Position numbers and translations under genes: made by a program. Of a stretch of 64,000 bases of DNA, positions 26,507 through 32,584 are shown one piece after another. The notes under the pieces were generated by a model. The model saw only the letters and a program-made list of their open reading frames with translations. It ran no database searches and was not told the origin of the DNA. The stretch spans positions 11,361-75,360 of the forward strand of contig CAYYLW010000002.1 of NCBI GenBank assembly GCA_964472465.1. The letters are read 5' to 3'. Source of the stretch: an uncultured Oscillospiraceae bacterium (GTDB lineage Bacteria > Bacillota > Clostridia > Oscillospirales > Ruminococcaceae). Numbering within the stretch: position 1 is the first letter of the stretch; the number at the start of each line of letters is the position of its first letter.

Positions 26507-28246
26507 ATGAGCATGGAAAACCTGAGAAACACCCCGGAATTTGCAACCTTGAGAGCCAGATTTGACGCCATTTTAGGAAAGGGCCCCGCTGATTTGCTGA
26601 TTAAAAACATCCGCATTGTGGATGTTTACAGTGAGCGTGTAACCGAGGGTTCCATTCTGATAAAGGATGGCATTATCATGGCGCTGAACCCGCCAGAGGA
26701 TGAGGTGCGACCAAACGAAGTGCTGGATGGGCAGGGGCTGTATGTGGCCCCCGGCCTGGTGGATGCGCACTGTCACATCGATAGCCACCTGGTGACACCG
26801 GCAGCATTTTCGGAGTGCATTACCCCAAACGGTACCACCACACTTTTCTGCGAGATAGAGGATATTGTGGGAAGCGCCAAAAAAGAGGGCGTAAAGTGTG
26901 TGGAGGTGCTGTTTAAAGATTTGGAAAAGCTCCCCTATCGCATCTATCTGCAAGCGCCTGGCAAGAAGGTAAAATGGGATATTTGTCGCCAAATTTTGGA
27001 TATGGACATCACTGTGAACCAGGGTGAGTTCCCAGAACTGGACTATTTGGAAGCCAAGGATGAGGTGCTGGAGCAAATTCTTTATGCCAAGAAGATTGGC
27101 AAACCGATCCATAGCCATATTAAGTACCTGTATGAGAGCACCTATCCCGTGAATATGTTTGCCATGGTAAATACGTACAACACCCATAATATTTGGGATT
27201 ACAAGAGTTTGCAGGCAGCCATACAACTGGGCATACCTTCCATGCTGCGCGAGGGTGTGGGTGGGGTACTAAGCTGTATGGATGCCGCAGTGCCTGGGAT
27301 GATCAACGACCACCTACCCACAGATAACATCATGTTCTGCACGGATAACCTTACCGTAGACACCATATTTAAGCAGGGACATTTGAACCACAACCTAAAC
27401 CGTGCCATCAGCATGGGTATTTCTCCCATTCAGGCCCTCAAGATGGGTACGCTGAATGCGGCCCGCGCTTTCCACATGGAGCAGTATATTGGTTCTGTTG
27501 CCCCTGGCCGCTTTGCAGACCTCATCTTCCTAAAAGATTTGCAGACCATTGAGCCTGTGATGGTGATGAAGGGGGGCAAAATGGTGGCGAAGGAAGGCCG
27601 CTTGCTGGAGCTGCCCAAAATAGATTACTCCGATATCATCAGCAAGGCAAAACCAGGCCTGGCCAGCCTGAAGAAAGAAGATTTGGAAATCACTCCGCTG
27701 GAAATTTCCTCCGATGGTACCAAGGCAAAGGTGGTGTGCCTGTATATGGGCATGCCCGCTTACATGGAGCCCTACTGGATGGACTACAAAGATGGTCAAG
27801 TGGTCATTCCAAAAGGGATGAACCGCATGAGCATCATCCAGCGTTACCCAAAGGGCGAGAGAAAGATTACCAATGGCCTGGTGAGCCAGTATGAGCTGGA
27901 GCGTGGTGCCTTGGCATTCAATTACTCTTCCTTGGATCAACAGATTTGTGTGGTAGGTACCAAGGTAGAGGATATGTACGAGGCCGCCCTGGCCATGGAC
28001 AATTACCCCGGCGGCTACATCTCCTGGTTAAACGGGAAGGTAACCTCGGAAATGCCTGCCGAGATTTACAGCATGATTACCACCATGAGCGCCAGCGAGT
28101 TCAACGAATGTGCCAAACGCCTGAAAAAAGCGGGCGAGGAACTGGGCTACTTTGAGGAAAAGGCAATTTCCCCCTGGCAATTCCGTATGCAAATCATGTC
28201 CTGGATGTTTGACCGCCGCCGCTATGTGGGGATGGAGGAAGACTAA
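26507..28246 (+). CDS. adenine deaminase-like amidohydrolase
   Basis: 579 aa. N-terminal DLLIKNIRIVDV...GLVDAHCHIDSHL (HxH metal motif) and a length typical of the Ade family. Confidence 0.7.
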   Translation: MSMENLRNTPEFATLRARFDAILGKGPADLLIKNIRIVDVYSERVTEGSILIKDGIIMALNPPEDEVRPNEVLDGQGLYVAPGLVDAHCHIDSHLVTPAAFSECITPNGTTTLFCEIEDIVGSAKKEGVKCVEVLFKDLEKLPYRIYLQAPGKKVKWDICRQILDMDITVNQGEFPELDYLEAKDEVLEQILYAKKIGKPIHSHIKYLYESTYPVNMFAMVNTYNTHNIWDYKSLQAAIQLGIPSMLREGVGGVLSCMDAAVPGMINDHLPTDNIMFCTDNLTVDTIFKQGHLNHNLNRAISMGISPIQALKMGTLNAARAFHMEQYIGSVAPGRFADLIFLKDLQTIEPVMVMKGGKMVAKEGRLLELPKIDYSDIISKAKPGLASLKKEDLEITPLEISSDGTKAKVVCLYMGMPAYMEPYWMDYKDGQVVIPKGMNRMSIIQRYPKGERKITNGLVSQYELERGALAFNYSSLDQQICVVGTKVEDMYEAALAMDNYPGGYISWLNGKVTSEMPAEIYSMITTMSASEFNECAKRLKKAGEELGYFEEKAISPWQFRMQIMSWMFDRRRYVGMEED

Positions 28247-28266
28247 TACTGCGTTTGGCTAAAGAC

Positions 28267-28300
28267 GAAAGGGAGGGGCCAGTTTTGGCGCCTCCCTTTC
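28267..28300. terminator. bidirectional hairpin terminator
   Basis: GAAAGGGAGG (28267-28276) pairs with CCTCCCTTTC (28291-28300). Lies between convergent genes. Confidence 0.5.
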
Positions 28301-28331
28301 ACCATAAGTGCCCCCATTTGTTCGCCATGTG

Positions 28332-28496
28332 CTAACAAAGAAGCTTGAGCGATGGGTAAAAAAGACCTTCTCTGATATATAGGGTGAGGTTTGCCAACCG
28401 CACAAAGAAAACAGAGATGGGCAAGCTAAGTAGAAAAAAACCCACACCCACGCCGGCCAGCTTTGCCACGTCCATCAGCCGCACAGTTTTACTCAT
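28332..28496 (-). CDS. 54-aa predicted small membrane protein with a LacI-like N-terminal 16 residues
   Basis: Hand translation gives MSKTVRLMDVAKLAGVGVGFFLLSLPISVFFVRLANLTLYIREGLFYPSLKLLC. Preceded by GAGGAG, 7 nt, ATG and a near-consensus promoter. Below the ORF-track length cutoff. Confidence 0.4.
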   Translation of the reverse strand: MSKTVRLMDVAKLAGVGVGFFLLSLPISVFFVRLANLTLYIREGLFYPSLKLLC

Positions 28497-28532
28497 AGAT
28501 TCGCTCCTCATACCAGGCGTCTTCTGTCCCCT

Positions 28533-28560
28533 ATTGTAGCAAATTTTGGGGGGCTGTCAA
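28533..28560 (-). promoter_or_regulatory. near-consensus sigma-A promoter
   Basis: On the minus strand: TTGACA (28560-28555), 16-nt spacer, TACAAT (28538-28533). Confidence 0.6.
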
Positions 28561-28653
28561 ATTAAGGCGCGGGAGGGGCAGGCCACAATAGGTTGCCGGT
28601 GGCGCAAAGCGATAGGCATAACGATAGGGGCGCCCAATTGGCAAGAGGTGGAT

Positions 28654-28698
28654 AAAAAAATCCCCCGGGCAGGTTATTCCTACAACCCGTCCGGGGGA
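28654..28698 (-). terminator. intrinsic terminator after the sORF tandem
   Basis: Minus-strand stem TCCCCCGGACGGGTT...AACCTGCCCGGGGGA followed by TTTTTTT. Confidence 0.65.
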
Positions 28699-28721
28699 TT
28701 TGAAAAGATAGTTGTGTGTGT

Positions 28722-28775
28722 TTACCACCATATGTTCTGGAGGATGCCGGAGAGGAAAAAAATCATTGCGTTCAT
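28722..28775 (-). CDS. 17-codon sORF A: MNAMIFFLSGILQNIWW
   Basis: AAAGGAGG, 8 nt, ATG, 17 codons, TAA. Duplicated 147 bp upstream. Not in the ORF track because it is under 60 aa. Confidence 0.45.
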   Translation of the reverse strand: MNAMIFFLSGILQNIWW

Positions 28776-28992
28776 GAGTGTGGCCTCCTTTCGTGTGGGG
28801 TATGCTTTCAGTATAGCCATGGGCCGTAACCAAGCCGTAACCGGGGGCTGGTTTAATTTTTGGGGGGACTACCACCATATGTTCTGGAAGATGCCGGAGA
28901 GGAAAAAAATCATTGCGTTCATGTGTGTGGCCTCCTTTCGTGTGGGGTATGCTTTCAGTATAGCCGTGGGCTGTAACCAAGCCGTAACCGGG
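28723..28992. repeat. tandem direct repeat, 2 x ~123 bp, 147-bp period
   Basis: Copies at 28723-28845 and 28870-28992 align with about 4 mismatches by eye. Each carries an SD, an sORF and a TATACT box. Confidence 0.9.
28869..28922 (-). CDS. 17-codon sORF B: MNAMIFFLSGIFQNIWW
   Basis: AAAGGAGG, 8 nt, ATG, 17 codons, TAG. One residue differs from sORF A. Confidence 0.45.
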   Translation of the reverse strand: MNAMIFFLSGIFQNIWW

Positions 28993-29022
28993 TTTTCAAT
29001 TTGTTGGCCATGTTGAAAACCC
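28990..29022. promoter_or_regulatory. perfect 10-bp inverted repeat (operator-like)
   Basis: GGGTTTTCAA (28990-28999), 13-nt gap, TTGAAAACCC (29013-29022). No flanking T-run, so it is unlikely to be a terminator. Confidence 0.4.
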
Positions 29023-29157
29023 ATTGTAAAACACCTCACACATAGATATCATAAATGCTACTATAATTATAAATAGATATCTAATAAATAATAAATGATA
29101 TGTAATGGATAATGGAGTGCAAGGCCTATTTTAGCTACACTGAAATAGGTGATAATA

Positions 29158-29409
29158 ATGGGTAGAAACAAAAAAATTAAATTTGAAAACTGAGATAAAT
29201 ATATTGCGCTTGGTTTAAACATTTCTTATTACCGAAAAAGAAAAGGGATGACCCAAGAGCAATTGGCTGAGGTGGCAGAACTGAGCCGCGGGTATTTGGG
29301 CGTTATTGAAGCCCCAGGGACGGTGACCAATATTTCCCTAGAAACCTTGTTTGGTTTGGCGGGTGCCTTGGAAGTAGACCCCGCACAGCTATTGGAAATA
29401 CGCAAGTAG
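29158..29409 (+). pseudogene. short XRE-family HTH gene interrupted by an in-frame TGA
   Basis: Reads MGRNKKIKFEN-TGA(29191-29193)-DKYIALGLNISYYRKRKGMTQEQLAEVAELSRGYLGVIEAPGTVTNISLETLFGLAGALEVDPAQLLEIRK*. The HTH_XRE pattern spans the stop codon. Confidence 0.55.
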
Positions 29410-29454
29410 GGTAGAGAAAAGGCCTTGGTGTAGAGGGGCAGAATGAAATAGAAA

Positions 29455-29496
29455 AATAGCCCACCGGTGTGGTTTGGACACACCGATGGGCTATTT
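29455..29496. terminator. bidirectional hairpin terminator between XRE and radical SAM genes
   Basis: AAATAGCCCACCGGTGTG...CACACCGATGGGCTATTT. Confidence 0.55.
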
Positions 29497-29533
29497 GGTT
29501 GCGTCAAGCGGGTTTGTGCCGGGATACTATTTT

Positions 29534-30871
29534 TTATCGGCGGTAGAGTGCCTGCCCGTTTTGGCCGCTTAGGTTGAAGGCGCAAAAGGGAACAAGCTCG
29601 CCCTCTGGCGAAACCACGTGAACGTGGCAGTGCTGCAAACGTTTGGTGTCCAAGGTCCACGCGTCTTGAAACATCATGCCGGAAATGGCAAGCCGAGATT
29701 GTTGTTGCAGGGCGAGAAACCCTTCCAGAGAATCCTCTTTCGGCGGCCCCTCTTGGCTGCAAGCCCCCACGGGAGACCATTTTTGCGCCACCGCCTGCCG
29801 GGCCCTATCGCTGCTGGGGCGCGGGGGGGCCTTGCCACAGCAGGGGTGTGTGGCGGTTTGTACCCGCCGCCATCTTCCCCCGGCGAGGGTATAATCCGCA
29901 TGAAAAGAACAAAGTGGGTGCTCTGCGCCGCCGGGCATAAAATCGGCCGCCTGCACCTGGCCGCCGCTCTGCTGTTCCAGCGCCCAAAGCAGCCCCGGCA
30001 GTGTGAGCCTCTCCTCGCGTTCCCAGGCCGCGCCATACCGGCCAAAATAGCTGATTGGCTGGAAGTGCACCCCCCGTACGGTGGGGCTATGCAGCGCGGC
30101 ATATTCCAGTATGCTCCACACATCTTGTAGGTTGCAGCCGGGTTTCACCGTGGGCACCAAAACCACACCCAGCCCCGCCCGGCCACAGTTTTCCACGGCT
30201 TTTTTTTTCACGTTTAGCAAAGGCCTGCCGCGCAGTTCTTGGTAGGGGGCTTCGCGTGTTGAATCAAATTGCAGGAACACGGTTTGCAAACCCGCTTTTT
30301 TTAGGCTGTGCGCAAAGGCTTCTTCTTCGGCCAGGCGCAGGCCATTTGTGTTGATTTGAAAGAACGGGAAGCCTTTGCGGCGGCCCGCCTCAACAATTTC
30401 TGGCAGGTCTTCCCTCAGGCTGGGTTCACCGCCAGAAAGCTGGATGTTGAAGGGCCCGCCCTTTTCCAGCAACAGATCAAACCAGGCCAAAATCGTTTCC
30501 AAGCTGGGGTCTGGCGGGGCGGACGCGCTGCCGCCGGAATTGGCAAAACAAACGGGGCAGGCCATGTTGCAGCGCGCCGTCACCTCCAGCAGCACACAAC
30601 AACTGGCCTGCTGATGGTTTTCACACAGCCCACAGTCATAGGGGCACCCGTTTTTAGCGGCGCGGTGGGCCCCTATTGGCTTTTGTGGCAGGGGCTCTTT
30701 GTACCGGGCCAGGAAGCTGGCCTCACCCTGCCAGACCCGGGTTTCAAAAAAGCCATGCTCCTCGCAGCTTTTTTGCAGTAAAATCTCCTCTTGCTGCAAC
30801 ACATACCGTGCGTCTATCTTTTTCAGGCACACGGGGCAAACGCTTTGGGCCGTACACAAGAATTTAGCCAT
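29534..30871 (-). CDS. radical SAM protein with an N-terminal Cys-rich (Zn-ribbon-like) domain
   Basis: CxxxCxxC motif CNMACPVC. Upstream Cys motifs CPVC and CPYDCGLC. C-terminal ISGMMFQDAWTLD...PFCAFN block, as in the MJ0619/Tes-like radical SAM family. Confidence 0.8.
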   Translation of the reverse strand: MAKFLCTAQSVCPVCLKKIDARYVLQQEEILLQKSCEEHGFFETRVWQGEASFLARYKEPLPQKPIGAHRAAKNGCPYDCGLCENHQQASCCVLLEVTARCNMACPVCFANSGGSASAPPDPSLETILAWFDLLLEKGGPFNIQLSGGEPSLREDLPEIVEAGRRKGFPFFQINTNGLRLAEEEAFAHSLKKAGLQTVFLQFDSTREAPYQELRGRPLLNVKKKAVENCGRAGLGVVLVPTVKPGCNLQDVWSILEYAALHSPTVRGVHFQPISYFGRYGAAWEREERLTLPGLLWALEQQSGGQVQAADFMPGGAEHPLCSFHADYTLAGGRWRRVQTATHPCCGKAPPRPSSDRARQAVAQKWSPVGACSQEGPPKEDSLEGFLALQQQSRLAISGMMFQDAWTLDTKRLQHCHVHVVSPEGELVPFCAFNLSGQNGQALYRR

Positions 30872-31283
30872 ACAGGCCCACTCCCTGGGCTTCTAAAATA
30901 TCCAGCATTTTTTCAAATGTGGCCACCATCAACTTGGGGCAAAACCCTGCCATGCCGCTGGGCGCACCCGCCAGCAATTCCCGGCACTCCAGGCTGCCGT
31001 ACTCCTGTGTAAACCACGCCACCAGCTCCCGCGCCGGCGCTTGATAGCCTGCTGGCTCCGGCTGGGTAGCGCCGCGGGGAAAATAGGTGCCAATGGCGGC
31101 CACAGCGCCCGTTAGGGTGCCGCAGGTGCGCTGGGCGCACATGCCCCCGCCCAGTGCGCCCAGCGCACGCACCGCAAAGGGGTGGTCTAGCCCGCGCATG
31201 TCCAGCGAAAGCTGCATCATCACCTGGCTACAGTGCAGGCCATTTTGTAGTTGCTCTTTTACCAGCGCTTCAAGGCTTTGCAT
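30864..31283 (-). CDS. C_GCAxxG_C_C family putative redox protein
   Basis: HCSQVMM...GGGMCAQRTCGTLTGAV...ECRELL...FCPKL matches the C-GCAxxG-C-C cysteine pattern. Overlaps the radical SAM start by 8 nt. Confidence 0.75.
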   Translation of the reverse strand: MQSLEALVKEQLQNGLHCSQVMMQLSLDMRGLDHPFAVRALGALGGGMCAQRTCGTLTGAVAAIGTYFPRGATQPEPAGYQAPARELVAWFTQEYGSLECRELLAGAPSGMAGFCPKLMVATFEKMLDILEAQGVGLYG

Positions 31284-31306
31284 GCAAACCCTCCTTTGGC
31301 CTTTTT

Positions 31307-32584
31307 CTATTGGGCATCCGCCGCCTCATAGCCGCACCAGTCCAGCAGTGTGCAAGCCAAAACCTGGCAGGAATGCAGGTAGTCCTCCAGCCCAACCCAT
31401 TCGTTGTTGGCGTGCATTTGCTCGGTTTTGCCCGGGCCAAAAATGACGGTGGGCGTGTGGCCGTACTGGTTTAAAAAACGGATATCGGCAGCGCCTTGGC
31501 GGCCACTGATGCTGGGCGCCTGCCCCAAAACGGTTTCGTAGTTGTGGCATAGGGTTTGCACAATGGGGCTATCCACGGGGATTTCAGAGGGTTCTGCAAA
31601 ATAGCCGGTGTACACCACCTCCGGCGGGTTTTCGCGCAGCCAGGGTTCTTCCTCTGCGGCGCGGCGCGCAACAAAGGCCGCAAAGGCCTGTTTTACAGCG
31701 GCGGAGTCCTCGCCCGGCAAGGTGGCCAAAGAGCCTTTCAGTAAGGCGCTATCGGGAAAGGCGCTGTTGTAGCTTCCGCTGCAAAACTGGCCAATCATGC
31801 AGGGAACCGAGCCAAAGACGTCGGGATAGAGTGGGTGGGACACCTGCTCGATGCGCAGGGCCTCAAATTCGGAAACGATTTGTGTGACCAGCCACCCCAG
31901 CCGGATGCCGCTTACGCCCAGGTCTCGCCGCTGTATTCCCGCGGCCTTGCCCTTCACCCGGATATCAAACCAGATGCGCCCAATGGAGCCGGGCTGCACC
32001 TGCATGCTGGAGGTTTCGCAGCAAATGCCGGCGTCCGCCCGGTAGCCCCGCTGTACACAGGCCAGGGTTCCGTTCCCGGTCAATTCCTCGTCCATCACAT
32101 ACTCGGCCAGCACATCCCCTTTAGGCTGTAGGCCGCAGGCTTTTACCGCCTTCATGGCCATGGTAAAAGCGGCCACACCGCTTTTCATGTCGGAGGTGCC
32201 GCGGCCATACATCTTGCCGTCCGCAATATCGGCAGACCAGGGCCCATGCTCCCAGTTTTCGGCCGCCCCCTCCGGAATCACGTCCACATGCCCATTGAAC
32301 AGCAGGCTGCGCCCACCGCCCCGGCCGGCCCATTTCGCCACCAGGTTGGGTCGCCCCTCATATGGTAAGGATTCTTTTACATACCCCGGGTGCTGGCGCA
32401 GCTCTTGCAGAGAGGGCACGAAACAATCCACTTCCAGCCCCATCTCCTGTAGTTGCTGCTGCAAAAAAGCCTGCACGGGCCCTTCGTCTCCGGTCACACT
32501 CGGTATTTGAATCAATTGCCGTAAAAAGTCCACCAATTCCTCGCGGTGTTCTTCCATCCAAGCACATACCCGCTCTTTGCTCAT
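31307..32584 (-). CDS. M20 family metallopeptidase / ArgE-DapE-type deacylase
   Basis: Blocks LLFNGHVDVIP, GRGTSDMKSG and DEELTGNG. Confidence 0.8.
   Translation of the reverse strand: MSKERVCAWMEEHREELVDFLRQLIQIPSVTGDEGPVQAFLQQQLQEMGLEVDCFVPSLQELRQHPGYVKESLPYEGRPNLVAKWAGRGGGRSLLFNGHVDVIPEGAAENWEHGPWSADIADGKMYGRGTSDMKSGVAAFTMAMKAVKACGLQPKGDVLAEYVMDEELTGNGTLACVQRGYRADAGICCETSSMQVQPGSIGRIWFDIRVKGKAAGIQRRDLGVSGIRLGWLVTQIVSEFEALRIEQVSHPLYPDVFGSVPCMIGQFCSGSYNSAFPDSALLKGSLATLPGEDSAAVKQAFAAFVARRAAEEEPWLRENPPEVVYTGYFAEPSEIPVDSPIVQTLCHNYETVLGQAPSISGRQGAADIRFLNQYGHTPTVIFGPGKTEQMHANNEWVGLEDYLHSCQVLACTLLDWCGYEAADAQ

Follow-up and report, generated by a model that had tools for sequence, protein, structure and literature searches.

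Is a pair of 17-codon open reading frames (ORFs), each preceded by a perfect ribosome-binding site and arranged in tandem, a gene, and if so, to which kind of small peptide does it belong? The question is raised by a locus on the minus strand of a 64,000 nucleotide (nt) stretch of DNA from an uncultured Oscillospiraceae bacterium (assembly GCA_964472465.1, contig CAYYLW010000002.1, positions 11,361 to 75,360), which was analyzed as a whole and is referred to here as the window. An initial annotation, made from the sequence alone, likened the small ORFs (sORFs) to pheromone precursors of the ComS or short hydrophobic peptide (SHP) type, to type I toxins and to precursors of ribosomally synthesized and post-translationally modified peptides (RiPPs). 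That annotation had the anatomy of the locus right, but it missed an adjoining XRE-type switch that carries a nonsense codon, a 51 amino acid (aa) ORF in frame with one of the sORFs, and the repeat unit's lack of relatives. None of the named families fits: the feature is real and cleanly built, and it is an orphan. We tentatively prefer, with limited confidence, to read the locus as a transcription unit for a lineage-specific small peptide, tied to the XRE-type switch; the peptide would be hydrophobic, efficiently translated and probably membrane-embedded, and its production would be gated at the level of transcription.

The tandem repeat and its sORFs

Tandem Repeats Finder reports 28723-28992 as a single tandem array (period 147, 1.8 copies, 96% matches, score 512), and a gapless repeat finder delimits within it two 123-nt copies that lie head-to-tail and are 97% identical (28723-28845 and 28870-28992). 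The initial annotation had described a unit of about 123 bp with roughly four mismatches; pairwise alignment of the copies with their flanks confirms this and sets the number of differing positions at exactly four. In the alignment, the matching stretch runs from a sharp onset at CCCGGTTACGG to TGGTGGTA, breaking off exactly at the stop codon, and neither the flanks nor the 24-nt spacer can be aligned. No further copy of the unit and no paralogous peptide were found elsewhere in the 64 kb window. Because the 147-nt period equals 49 codons, both sORFs lie in the same frame, with a single TAG between them.

Each copy contains, just as the initial annotation had it, the Shine-Dalgarno (SD) sequence AAAGGAGG, an 8-nt spacer and an ATG followed by 16 more codons and a stop; the spacer is CA-rich. 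The sole coding difference between the two sORFs is likewise the one reported, a CTC/TTC codon that exchanges F and L; the remaining three differences fall upstream, where they correspond to Q/R, T/M and H/L, and none of the four is synonymous when read in the frame of the sORFs. The 54-nt sORF pattern has two matches in the window, whereas 100 shuffles gave none. The core motif AAGGAGG with an ATG 4-10 nt later is present six times in the window: at the true starts of three long genes, at the two sORFs and once inside a gene. We regard the SD motif as strong evidence of a start site, short of proof.

The encoded peptide has no charged residues at all, and its grand average of hydropathy (GRAVY) of 1.11 places it in the top 7% of the 417 small ATG-initiated ORFs of the window. 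Ten of its residues 1-15 are I, V, L, F, C, M or A. The C-terminus, QNIWW, is aromatic/polar, with the WW pair at the extreme end of the chain, and the N-terminus is neither basic nor otherwise charged. The sense RNA of the two units folds worse than 188 of 200 and 200 of 200 shuffles, respectively (z +1.5 and +2.1), and RNA that is so unusually unstructured fits with an open region for translation initiation. Most of the putative transcript, folded as 377 nt from 29024 to 28648, gave a z of -0.42 and no riboswitch-like structure, and Rfam yielded no match, whether 28000-29600 was searched with E-value thresholds or the whole window at gathering thresholds. Supported by the strongest possible SD, ideal spacing, less-structured RNA and a coherent uncharged peptide, the 17-codon reading is a reasonable gene model.

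Signals around the pair were also largely as first described. The strong intrinsic terminator after the pair and the perfect 10-bp inverted repeat at 28990-29022 are both present (Table 1). The hairpin formed by the inverted repeat has a stem that opens at the G of an AUG at 29024, and no U-run follows it on either strand. A TATACT box, reported for both copies, does occur in each, but an acceptable -35 hexamer is lacking upstream and the promoter scan did not list it. On the plus strand, the inter-unit spacer region carries a weak terminator-like hairpin at 28839-28863 (AACCGGGGGCTGGTT then TAATTTTT; the hairpin itself is 28839-28853). This is the sole hint of a possible antisense transcript end, and a matching promoter was not found.

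A divergent XRE switch

An XRE-family helix-turn-helix (HTH) gene is transcribed divergently from the sORF pair. Its 14 full-length homologues are 51-78% identical to it (78% in run SRR31913092), and all are 83 aa in length except for one of 86 aa and one of 78 aa. At the position of the in-frame TGA of the window gene, 13 of the 14 homologues have Arg or Lys, within the conserved motif FENRDKY, which indicates that the gene carries a CGA>TGA nonsense change. It is likely a pseudogene, although a sequencing error or read-through is possible. The HTH product is missing from the protein collection, in which the products of several neighboring genes (TrsS, a C-GCAxxG-C-C protein, an M20 deacylase and Bmp) are present.

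Alignment of six HTH loci shows that a divergent promoter of the form TTGxxx-17-TATAAT is conserved, together with operator-like repeats. The -35 hexamer of the relatives is TTGACA, TTGCTT or TTGCTA (the latter in L100, the closest homologous locus), versus TTATTA in the window. The AT-rich repeats of 29051-29113, with their 21-bp period, are probable operators of the 83-aa XRE family. Similar motifs also occur in L100. The window thus contains the components of an XRE (HTH_3) divergent repressor switch, namely an HTH_3 protein, a conserved divergent promoter and periodic repeats, here with a premature TGA in the regulator. The best PADLOC matches of the 83-aa HTH protein are restriction-modification control proteins.

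The gene on the divergent side is not constant. In the contexts of five homologues its product is variously an acidic protein of 67 aa, a protein of 58 aa (with a serine recombinase next in line), YpsA or a PMT_2 glycosyltransferase. The window and the closest HTH locus share nucleotide homology only over 29042-29409, so that the divergent "cargo" position is a variable slot, which in the window is filled by the sORF pair. No comparable sORF was found around the HTH homologues, including the multi-copy loci of Monoglobus. Monoglobus pectinilyticus has at least 10 copies of the 83-aa HTH family, at approximately 50% identity. The three that were examined (L129 2143-2994, L130 2000-2997 and L131 1844-2994) each have in front of them 0.85-1.15 kb of DNA that is unannotated and filled with a repeat present in many copies (TATATTGAACACTGCGTGTTCAGATG...; GGTTCAAACACC...TATATGGGGTCATATAC). 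This repeat is not matched in Rfam, and its sequence bears no relation to the window unit.

Proposed organization of the locus

The anatomy of the sequence, the conservation of the switch, the nonsense codon and the lack of homologues are direct observations. From this arrangement we infer that the locus is transcribed and translated and that its product is located in the membrane and has some activity there. A minus-strand RNA of approximately 400 nt would start near 29059 at the conserved divergent promoter, pass through the 5' hairpin and both repeat units, and halt at the strong terminator, at 28654. The unstructured ribosome-binding site of each unit would then yield an uncharged, hydrophobic 17-mer with a Trp-Trp end. 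Such a peptide is long and hydrophobic enough to lie in the membrane as a single short helix, with the terminal Trp pair as an anchor, and as a micropeptide it might be membrane-active or modulate membrane proteins. Translation of copy 1 could also begin at the AUG at 29024, giving a 51-aa protein that ends in this hydrophobic stretch, and both starts may be in use. Gating would be the task of the XRE protein, which is predicted to control transcription from the 21-bp-periodic operators with no antisense RNA involved. As the repressor gene has a nonsense codon, the unit would be either derepressed or part of a decaying module. We prefer this account as the best fit to the anatomy, which combines a promoter under operator control with open RNA, a perfect SD and a terminator of its own.

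A more specific proposal, which we put forward as speculation and consider unlikely, is that the locus represents a new small-toxin or micropeptide module in which tandem WW-terminated membrane 17-mers are gated by an XRE repressor instead of an antisense RNA, and are expressed upon loss or inactivation of the repressor, the state found in this genome.

If the locus is real in this sense, its products join the broad class of small hydrophobic sORF peptides, with an unusual regulatory position. Peptides made from it would rank with the shortest membrane peptides known to be encoded on a chromosome, and would exemplify the capture of a micro-ORF by a widespread XRE switch, in its variable cargo slot. 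This would help the annotation of small proteins in Clostridia-type genomes, in which genes of 17 codons are never called. The locus is a candidate for ribosome profiling (Ribo-seq) and peptidomics, and it also offers a caution: a perfect SD combined with a tandem repeat does not identify a family.

Table 1. Positions of the sORF pair, its repeat units and the adjoining switch in the window
Feature	Coordinates	Strand	Details
sORF1	28869..28922 (28922->28869)	-	MNAMIFFLSGIFQNIWW + TAG; SD AAAGGAGG at 28938->28931, 8-nt CA-rich spacer
sORF2	28722..28775 (28775->28722)	-	MNAMIFFLSGILQNIWW + TAA; SD AAAGGAGG at 28791->28784, 8 nt before ATG
Repeat unit, copy 1	28870..28992	-	Minus-strand order: CCCGGTTACGGCTTGGTTACAGCC, TATACT, SD, sORF1, TGGTGGTA
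Repeat unit, copy 2	28723..28845	-	97% identity to copy 1, 4 mismatches
Inter-copy spacer, 24 nt	28846..28869	-	Holds the TAG stop of sORF1; unlike either outer flank
Inverted repeat, perfect 10-bp arms	28990-28999 + 29013-29022	-	RNA hairpin, -14.8 kcal/mol
Intrinsic terminator	28651..28701	-	Stem 28701->28658, 18-bp arms, -31.0 kcal/mol, 7 T/U; predicted end of the sORF transcript
51-aa ORF	28869..29024 (29024->28869)	-	MGFQHGQQIENPVTAWLQPTAILKAYPTRKEATH + sORF1, in frame; SD GAGGTG at 29037->29032, 7 nt upstream
Divergent promoter	29066..29094	-	-10 TATAAT 29071->29066; degenerate -35 TTATTA 29094->29089
AT-rich repeats, 21-bp period, GATATC cores	29051..29113	n/a	Overlap both divergent promoters
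XRE-family HTH gene, 83-aa family	29158..29409	+	Good SD and ATG; in-frame TGA 29191-29193 (codon 12); HTH_3 E 1.8e-10

Homology searches

The genome, metagenome, viral, plasmid, phage and protein collections searched yielded no homologue, either of the unit itself or of its reading frames. The genome and metagenome scans were indirect, as the former covered only the surroundings of TrsS homologues and the latter used one strict pattern. Near the TrsS homologues (one genome per species), the sORF pattern was present at 0 of 80 loci. The metagenome pattern (SD, MNAM, 27-39 nt and a WW-stop) retrieved 15 loci, all of them chance matches in high-GC soil genes. Four scans of viral contigs gave either nothing or chance matches, and the unit was unmatched following blastn comparison with plasmids and phages. 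When the three reading frames of the repeat were concatenated (361 aa) and compared with 5.8 billion proteins, there was no match at E <= 10.

Searches with the flanking genes and the longer ORF were similarly negative. The gene-position index contained no exact matches to the radical S-adenosylmethionine (SAM) protein TrsS, a 53-aa HTH fragment, the adenine deaminase or the 51-aa ORF. The 51-aa ORF has no family match in Pfam, NCBIfam, PHROGs or PADLOC, and an exhaustive phmmer search with it against 1.84 billion representatives recovered only itself and spurious repeat proteins.

Alternative explanations

A number of observations weigh against a small-peptide unit. As no homologue of the unit or its frames was found, there is no conservation or substitution-pattern evidence of translation, and the comparison of the two copies with each other has no statistical power, since they differ at only four positions, all nonsynonymous. 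An SD and ATG of equal quality have arisen once by chance inside a gene of the window. Accessibility of the SD and AUG within the full transcript is average (0.47 versus a mean of 0.48), and the internal TATACT is without a -35. The degenerate -35 of the divergent promoter and the pseudogene repressor both fit decay. Finally, AAAGGAGG could merely represent the Arg-Lys-Glu-Ala (R-K-E-A) codons of the 51-aa ORF, residues 7-31 of which are identical at 9 of 25 positions to the 58-aa divergent partner in another HTH locus, L107 (shuffle p ~0.01, uncorrected). Several of these points also speak for a functionless relic in a decaying switch module, derived from a fragment of a former divergent gene, or from a de novo ORF, that was duplicated by slippage or unequal recombination, in which the SD, ATG and ORF survived by chance because they present a target of only ~70 nt. 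We consider such a relic possible but doubtful, and almost as plausible as the small-peptide unit, because the repressor gene is interrupted by a nonsense codon, the -35 is weakened and no relatives at all turned up in the collections searched. The nonsynonymous nature of every copy difference, the chance SD and ATG elsewhere in the window and the fact that the sORF region is non-syntenic even beside a neighbor gene of 94% identity are also consistent with it. A relic would, however, require many coincidences to account for an optimally spaced AAAGGAGG, unstructured RNA, a coherent hydrophobic peptide and a dedicated terminator, and the copies, despite being 3% diverged, both retain the SD, start, frame and stop, although this last argument has weak power. 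It is also conceivable, but unlikely, that the real gene is the 51-aa ORF, encoding a small tail-anchored protein in the divergent slot, with copy 2 a 3' partial duplicate and the internal SD a product of its codons. This ORF is annotated in the source NCBI record, and in alignment with the closest HTH locus its ATG and SD fall where the 67-aa divergent gene starts. In a search of the window for remnants of the divergent genes of relatives, its likeness to the L107 partner was a marginal match, non-significant once corrected and a weak lead only. Against the 51-aa ORF, its start codon is locked in the perfect -14.8 kcal/mol hairpin, it is a singleton in the protein collection and without a family, and only one of the six AAGGAGG and ATG combinations in the window is intragenic; strong internal SDs are expected to be selected against.

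The families suggested in the initial annotation, and a further one, can be weighed in the same way. The screen of Fozo et al. 2010 for type I toxins selects tandem ORFs in one intergenic region that encode 16-70 aa, with at least 10 of 15 residues hydrophobic and an aromatic/polar C-terminus (PMC2887945), and the 17-aa pair passes on every count; the weak plus-strand hairpin at 28839-28853 might be added in favor of an Ibs/Sib-like system of tandem toxic hydrophobic peptides, each silenced by a cis-encoded antisense RNA. This resemblance stands, but the antisense half of the system was not detected by promoter scan or folding: no sigma-70-like plus-strand promoter lies inside or next to the units, the two copies are unlike in the flanking DNA in which antisense promoters would be located, and the antisense RNAs are no more stable than shuffles (z +0.5, -0.4, +1.65 and -1.3). 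In addition, the sense mRNA is open, whereas a closed structure that hides the SD would be expected of a toxin mRNA, and Rfam offers no match (rdlD, 16 bits versus a threshold of 50). We therefore judge a type I system to be improbable. A pheromone precursor of the ComS/SHP type, which would be exported and trimmed and then detected by a receptor whose gene lies elsewhere in the genome, is still less probable. In its favor, the peptide is hydrophobic, its gene adjoins that of an HTH regulator, its 17 aa equal the size of S. mutans ComS, and it has a WW pair, as do type II sigX-inducing peptides (XIPs) (PMC5131902). In the type II XIPs, however, the conserved WW lies within a C-terminal mature peptide of 7-8 residues, and rearranged XIP agonists for one ComR (S. 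agalactiae 2603) have three residues after it (PMC5131902); in the window peptide the WW is terminal, with no residues following, and the basic N-terminus is absent. Systems of the RRNPP, Rgg-SHP and ComRS kind have a cytoplasmic receptor of about 280-320 aa, with an HTH and a peptide-binding tetratricopeptide repeat (TPR)-like domain, encoded beside the peptide gene. The initial annotation saw no Rgg/ComR-type regulator in the window, and Pfam analysis of every sizeable ORF agrees, as it identified no RRNPP/Rgg/ComR (HTH and TPR) gene, Opp, PptAB, Eep, two-component system or peptide exporter in the 64 kb, although the export, processing and import genes of such systems (PptAB, Eep and Opp/Ami) are as a rule unlinked to the peptide gene. 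The neighboring regulator is an 83-aa, HTH-only protein that in relatives is paired with unrelated genes, and the pheromone suggestion is not borne out. A Trp-sensing leader peptide, or a pair of them, with attenuation at the terminator would explain the tandem Trp codons and the terminator downstream, and there is a weak Rfam match to Phe_leader (19.6 bits, E 2.9); the sORF peptide is also loosely like TrpL. We nevertheless find this very improbable. The Phe_leader score is far under the 55-bit gathering score, and no regulated gene or biosynthetic operon lies downstream, where the next ORF has its own consensus promoter. The stop codon is 20 nt before the terminator stem, the search for an antiterminator or competing hairpin was negative, and the sole alternative pairing is a CCGG contact of 4-5 bp. 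Precursors for the radical SAM enzyme encoded 0.6 kb away, the RiPP suggestion, can be ruled out for practical purposes. Proximity and a Trp-rich C-terminus are the only points in its favor, and the suggestion is largely refuted by the assignment of the enzyme to the TrsS equivalog (585 bits versus a cut-off of 490), with a DVU_1555-family partner, and by its separate transcription unit, which has a terminator of its own and is divided from the sORFs by an opposite-strand gene. A RiPP system of this sort would instead have an adjacent, co-transcribed radical SAM maturase from a peptide-modifying family with a SPASM or RRE domain. Moreover, no such sORF lies near the TrsS homologues of 80 genomes.

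Genomic surroundings

The locus occupies a 1.3-kb gap between a plus-strand adenine-deaminase-like gene, which is the last gene of a plus-strand nucleoside ATP-binding cassette (ABC)-transporter cluster, and the minus-strand radical SAM operon. This operon (29534-32584) encodes the radical SAM protein, the C-GCAxxG-C-C protein that is the DVU_1555-family partner of TrsS, and the M20 deacylase, and is followed by a PucR regulator and xanthine-dehydrogenase-type genes; its terminator is an 18-bp stem at 29496->29454. The radical SAM protein is a TrsS (seleno)protein equivalog with an HMPTM-type zinc ribbon, and peptide-maturase models score at most 48 bits on it, versus cut-offs of 367-650. Its closest relatives are only 42-46% identical (one genome per species) and come from Clostridium metagenome-assembled genomes (MAGs) and Desulfovibrio.

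On the other side of the gap, homology with adenine deaminase loci of 94% and 80% identity ends at 28256, and the sORF region is non-syntenic. The relative with the 94%-identical gene (L096; run SRR10912416) diverges fully 10 nt past the stop of that gene (window 28256, L096 11744). This homologue also has a different gene neighborhood on both sides, and the differing neighborhoods mark the intergenic region as a site of rearrangement.

The sORF terminator is immediately followed by a 54-aa ORF (28335-28496, minus strand; MSKTVRLMDVAKLAGVGVGFFLLSLPISVFFV...) with the SD GAGGAG and a near-consensus promoter, TTGACA-16-TG-TACAAT, at 28560->28533. It encodes one transmembrane-like segment, is annotated in the source record and is a singleton with no family match. 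The possibility that it is a LacI-HTH remnant was rejected, as the 6 of 12 identities at its N-terminus are not significant.

Comparison with known systems

The type I loci Ibs/Sib and Ldr/Rdl of Enterobacteria (PMC2887945) share with the window locus tiny hydrophobic ORFs arranged in tandem in one intergenic region, a repeat unit that is longer than the ORF and an aromatic/polar C-terminus. Unlike these loci, the window pair has no detectable antisense RNA gene, an open mRNA and no sequence similarity to them, and its control appears to be exerted by a protein-repressor switch. Ibs peptides are 18-19 aa in length. With S. mutans ComS and the type II XIPs (PMC5131902), the locus has in common a 17-aa hydrophobic precursor, adjacent Trp residues and an HTH regulator gene alongside. 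In contrast to ComS/XIP, the regulator is without a peptide-binding TPR domain, the WW constitutes the last two residues, export and import genes are not found nearby, and the host appears to be of the Clostridia type and not a streptococcus.

The phenol-soluble modulin (PSM) alpha operon of Staphylococcus encodes several peptides of ~20 aa without signal sequences, in tandem and each with its own SD; its transcription is controlled by a DNA-binding regulator, and the PSMs form charged amphipathic helices. Tandem short peptides that lack a signal sequence, individual SDs and, as proposed, transcriptional control are thus shared with the window locus. Unlike the PSMs, the window peptide carries no charge and its polar face is only narrow, and a Pmt-type exporter is lacking in the vicinity.

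The switch itself resembles the divergent XRE switches of the Cro/CI-like and C-protein types, with which it shares an 83-aa HTH_3 protein, back-to-back promoters and periodic operators. Unlike those switches, that of the window has a duplicated micro-ORF in its divergent slot in place of a normal protein gene, and a repressor gene interrupted by a stop codon.

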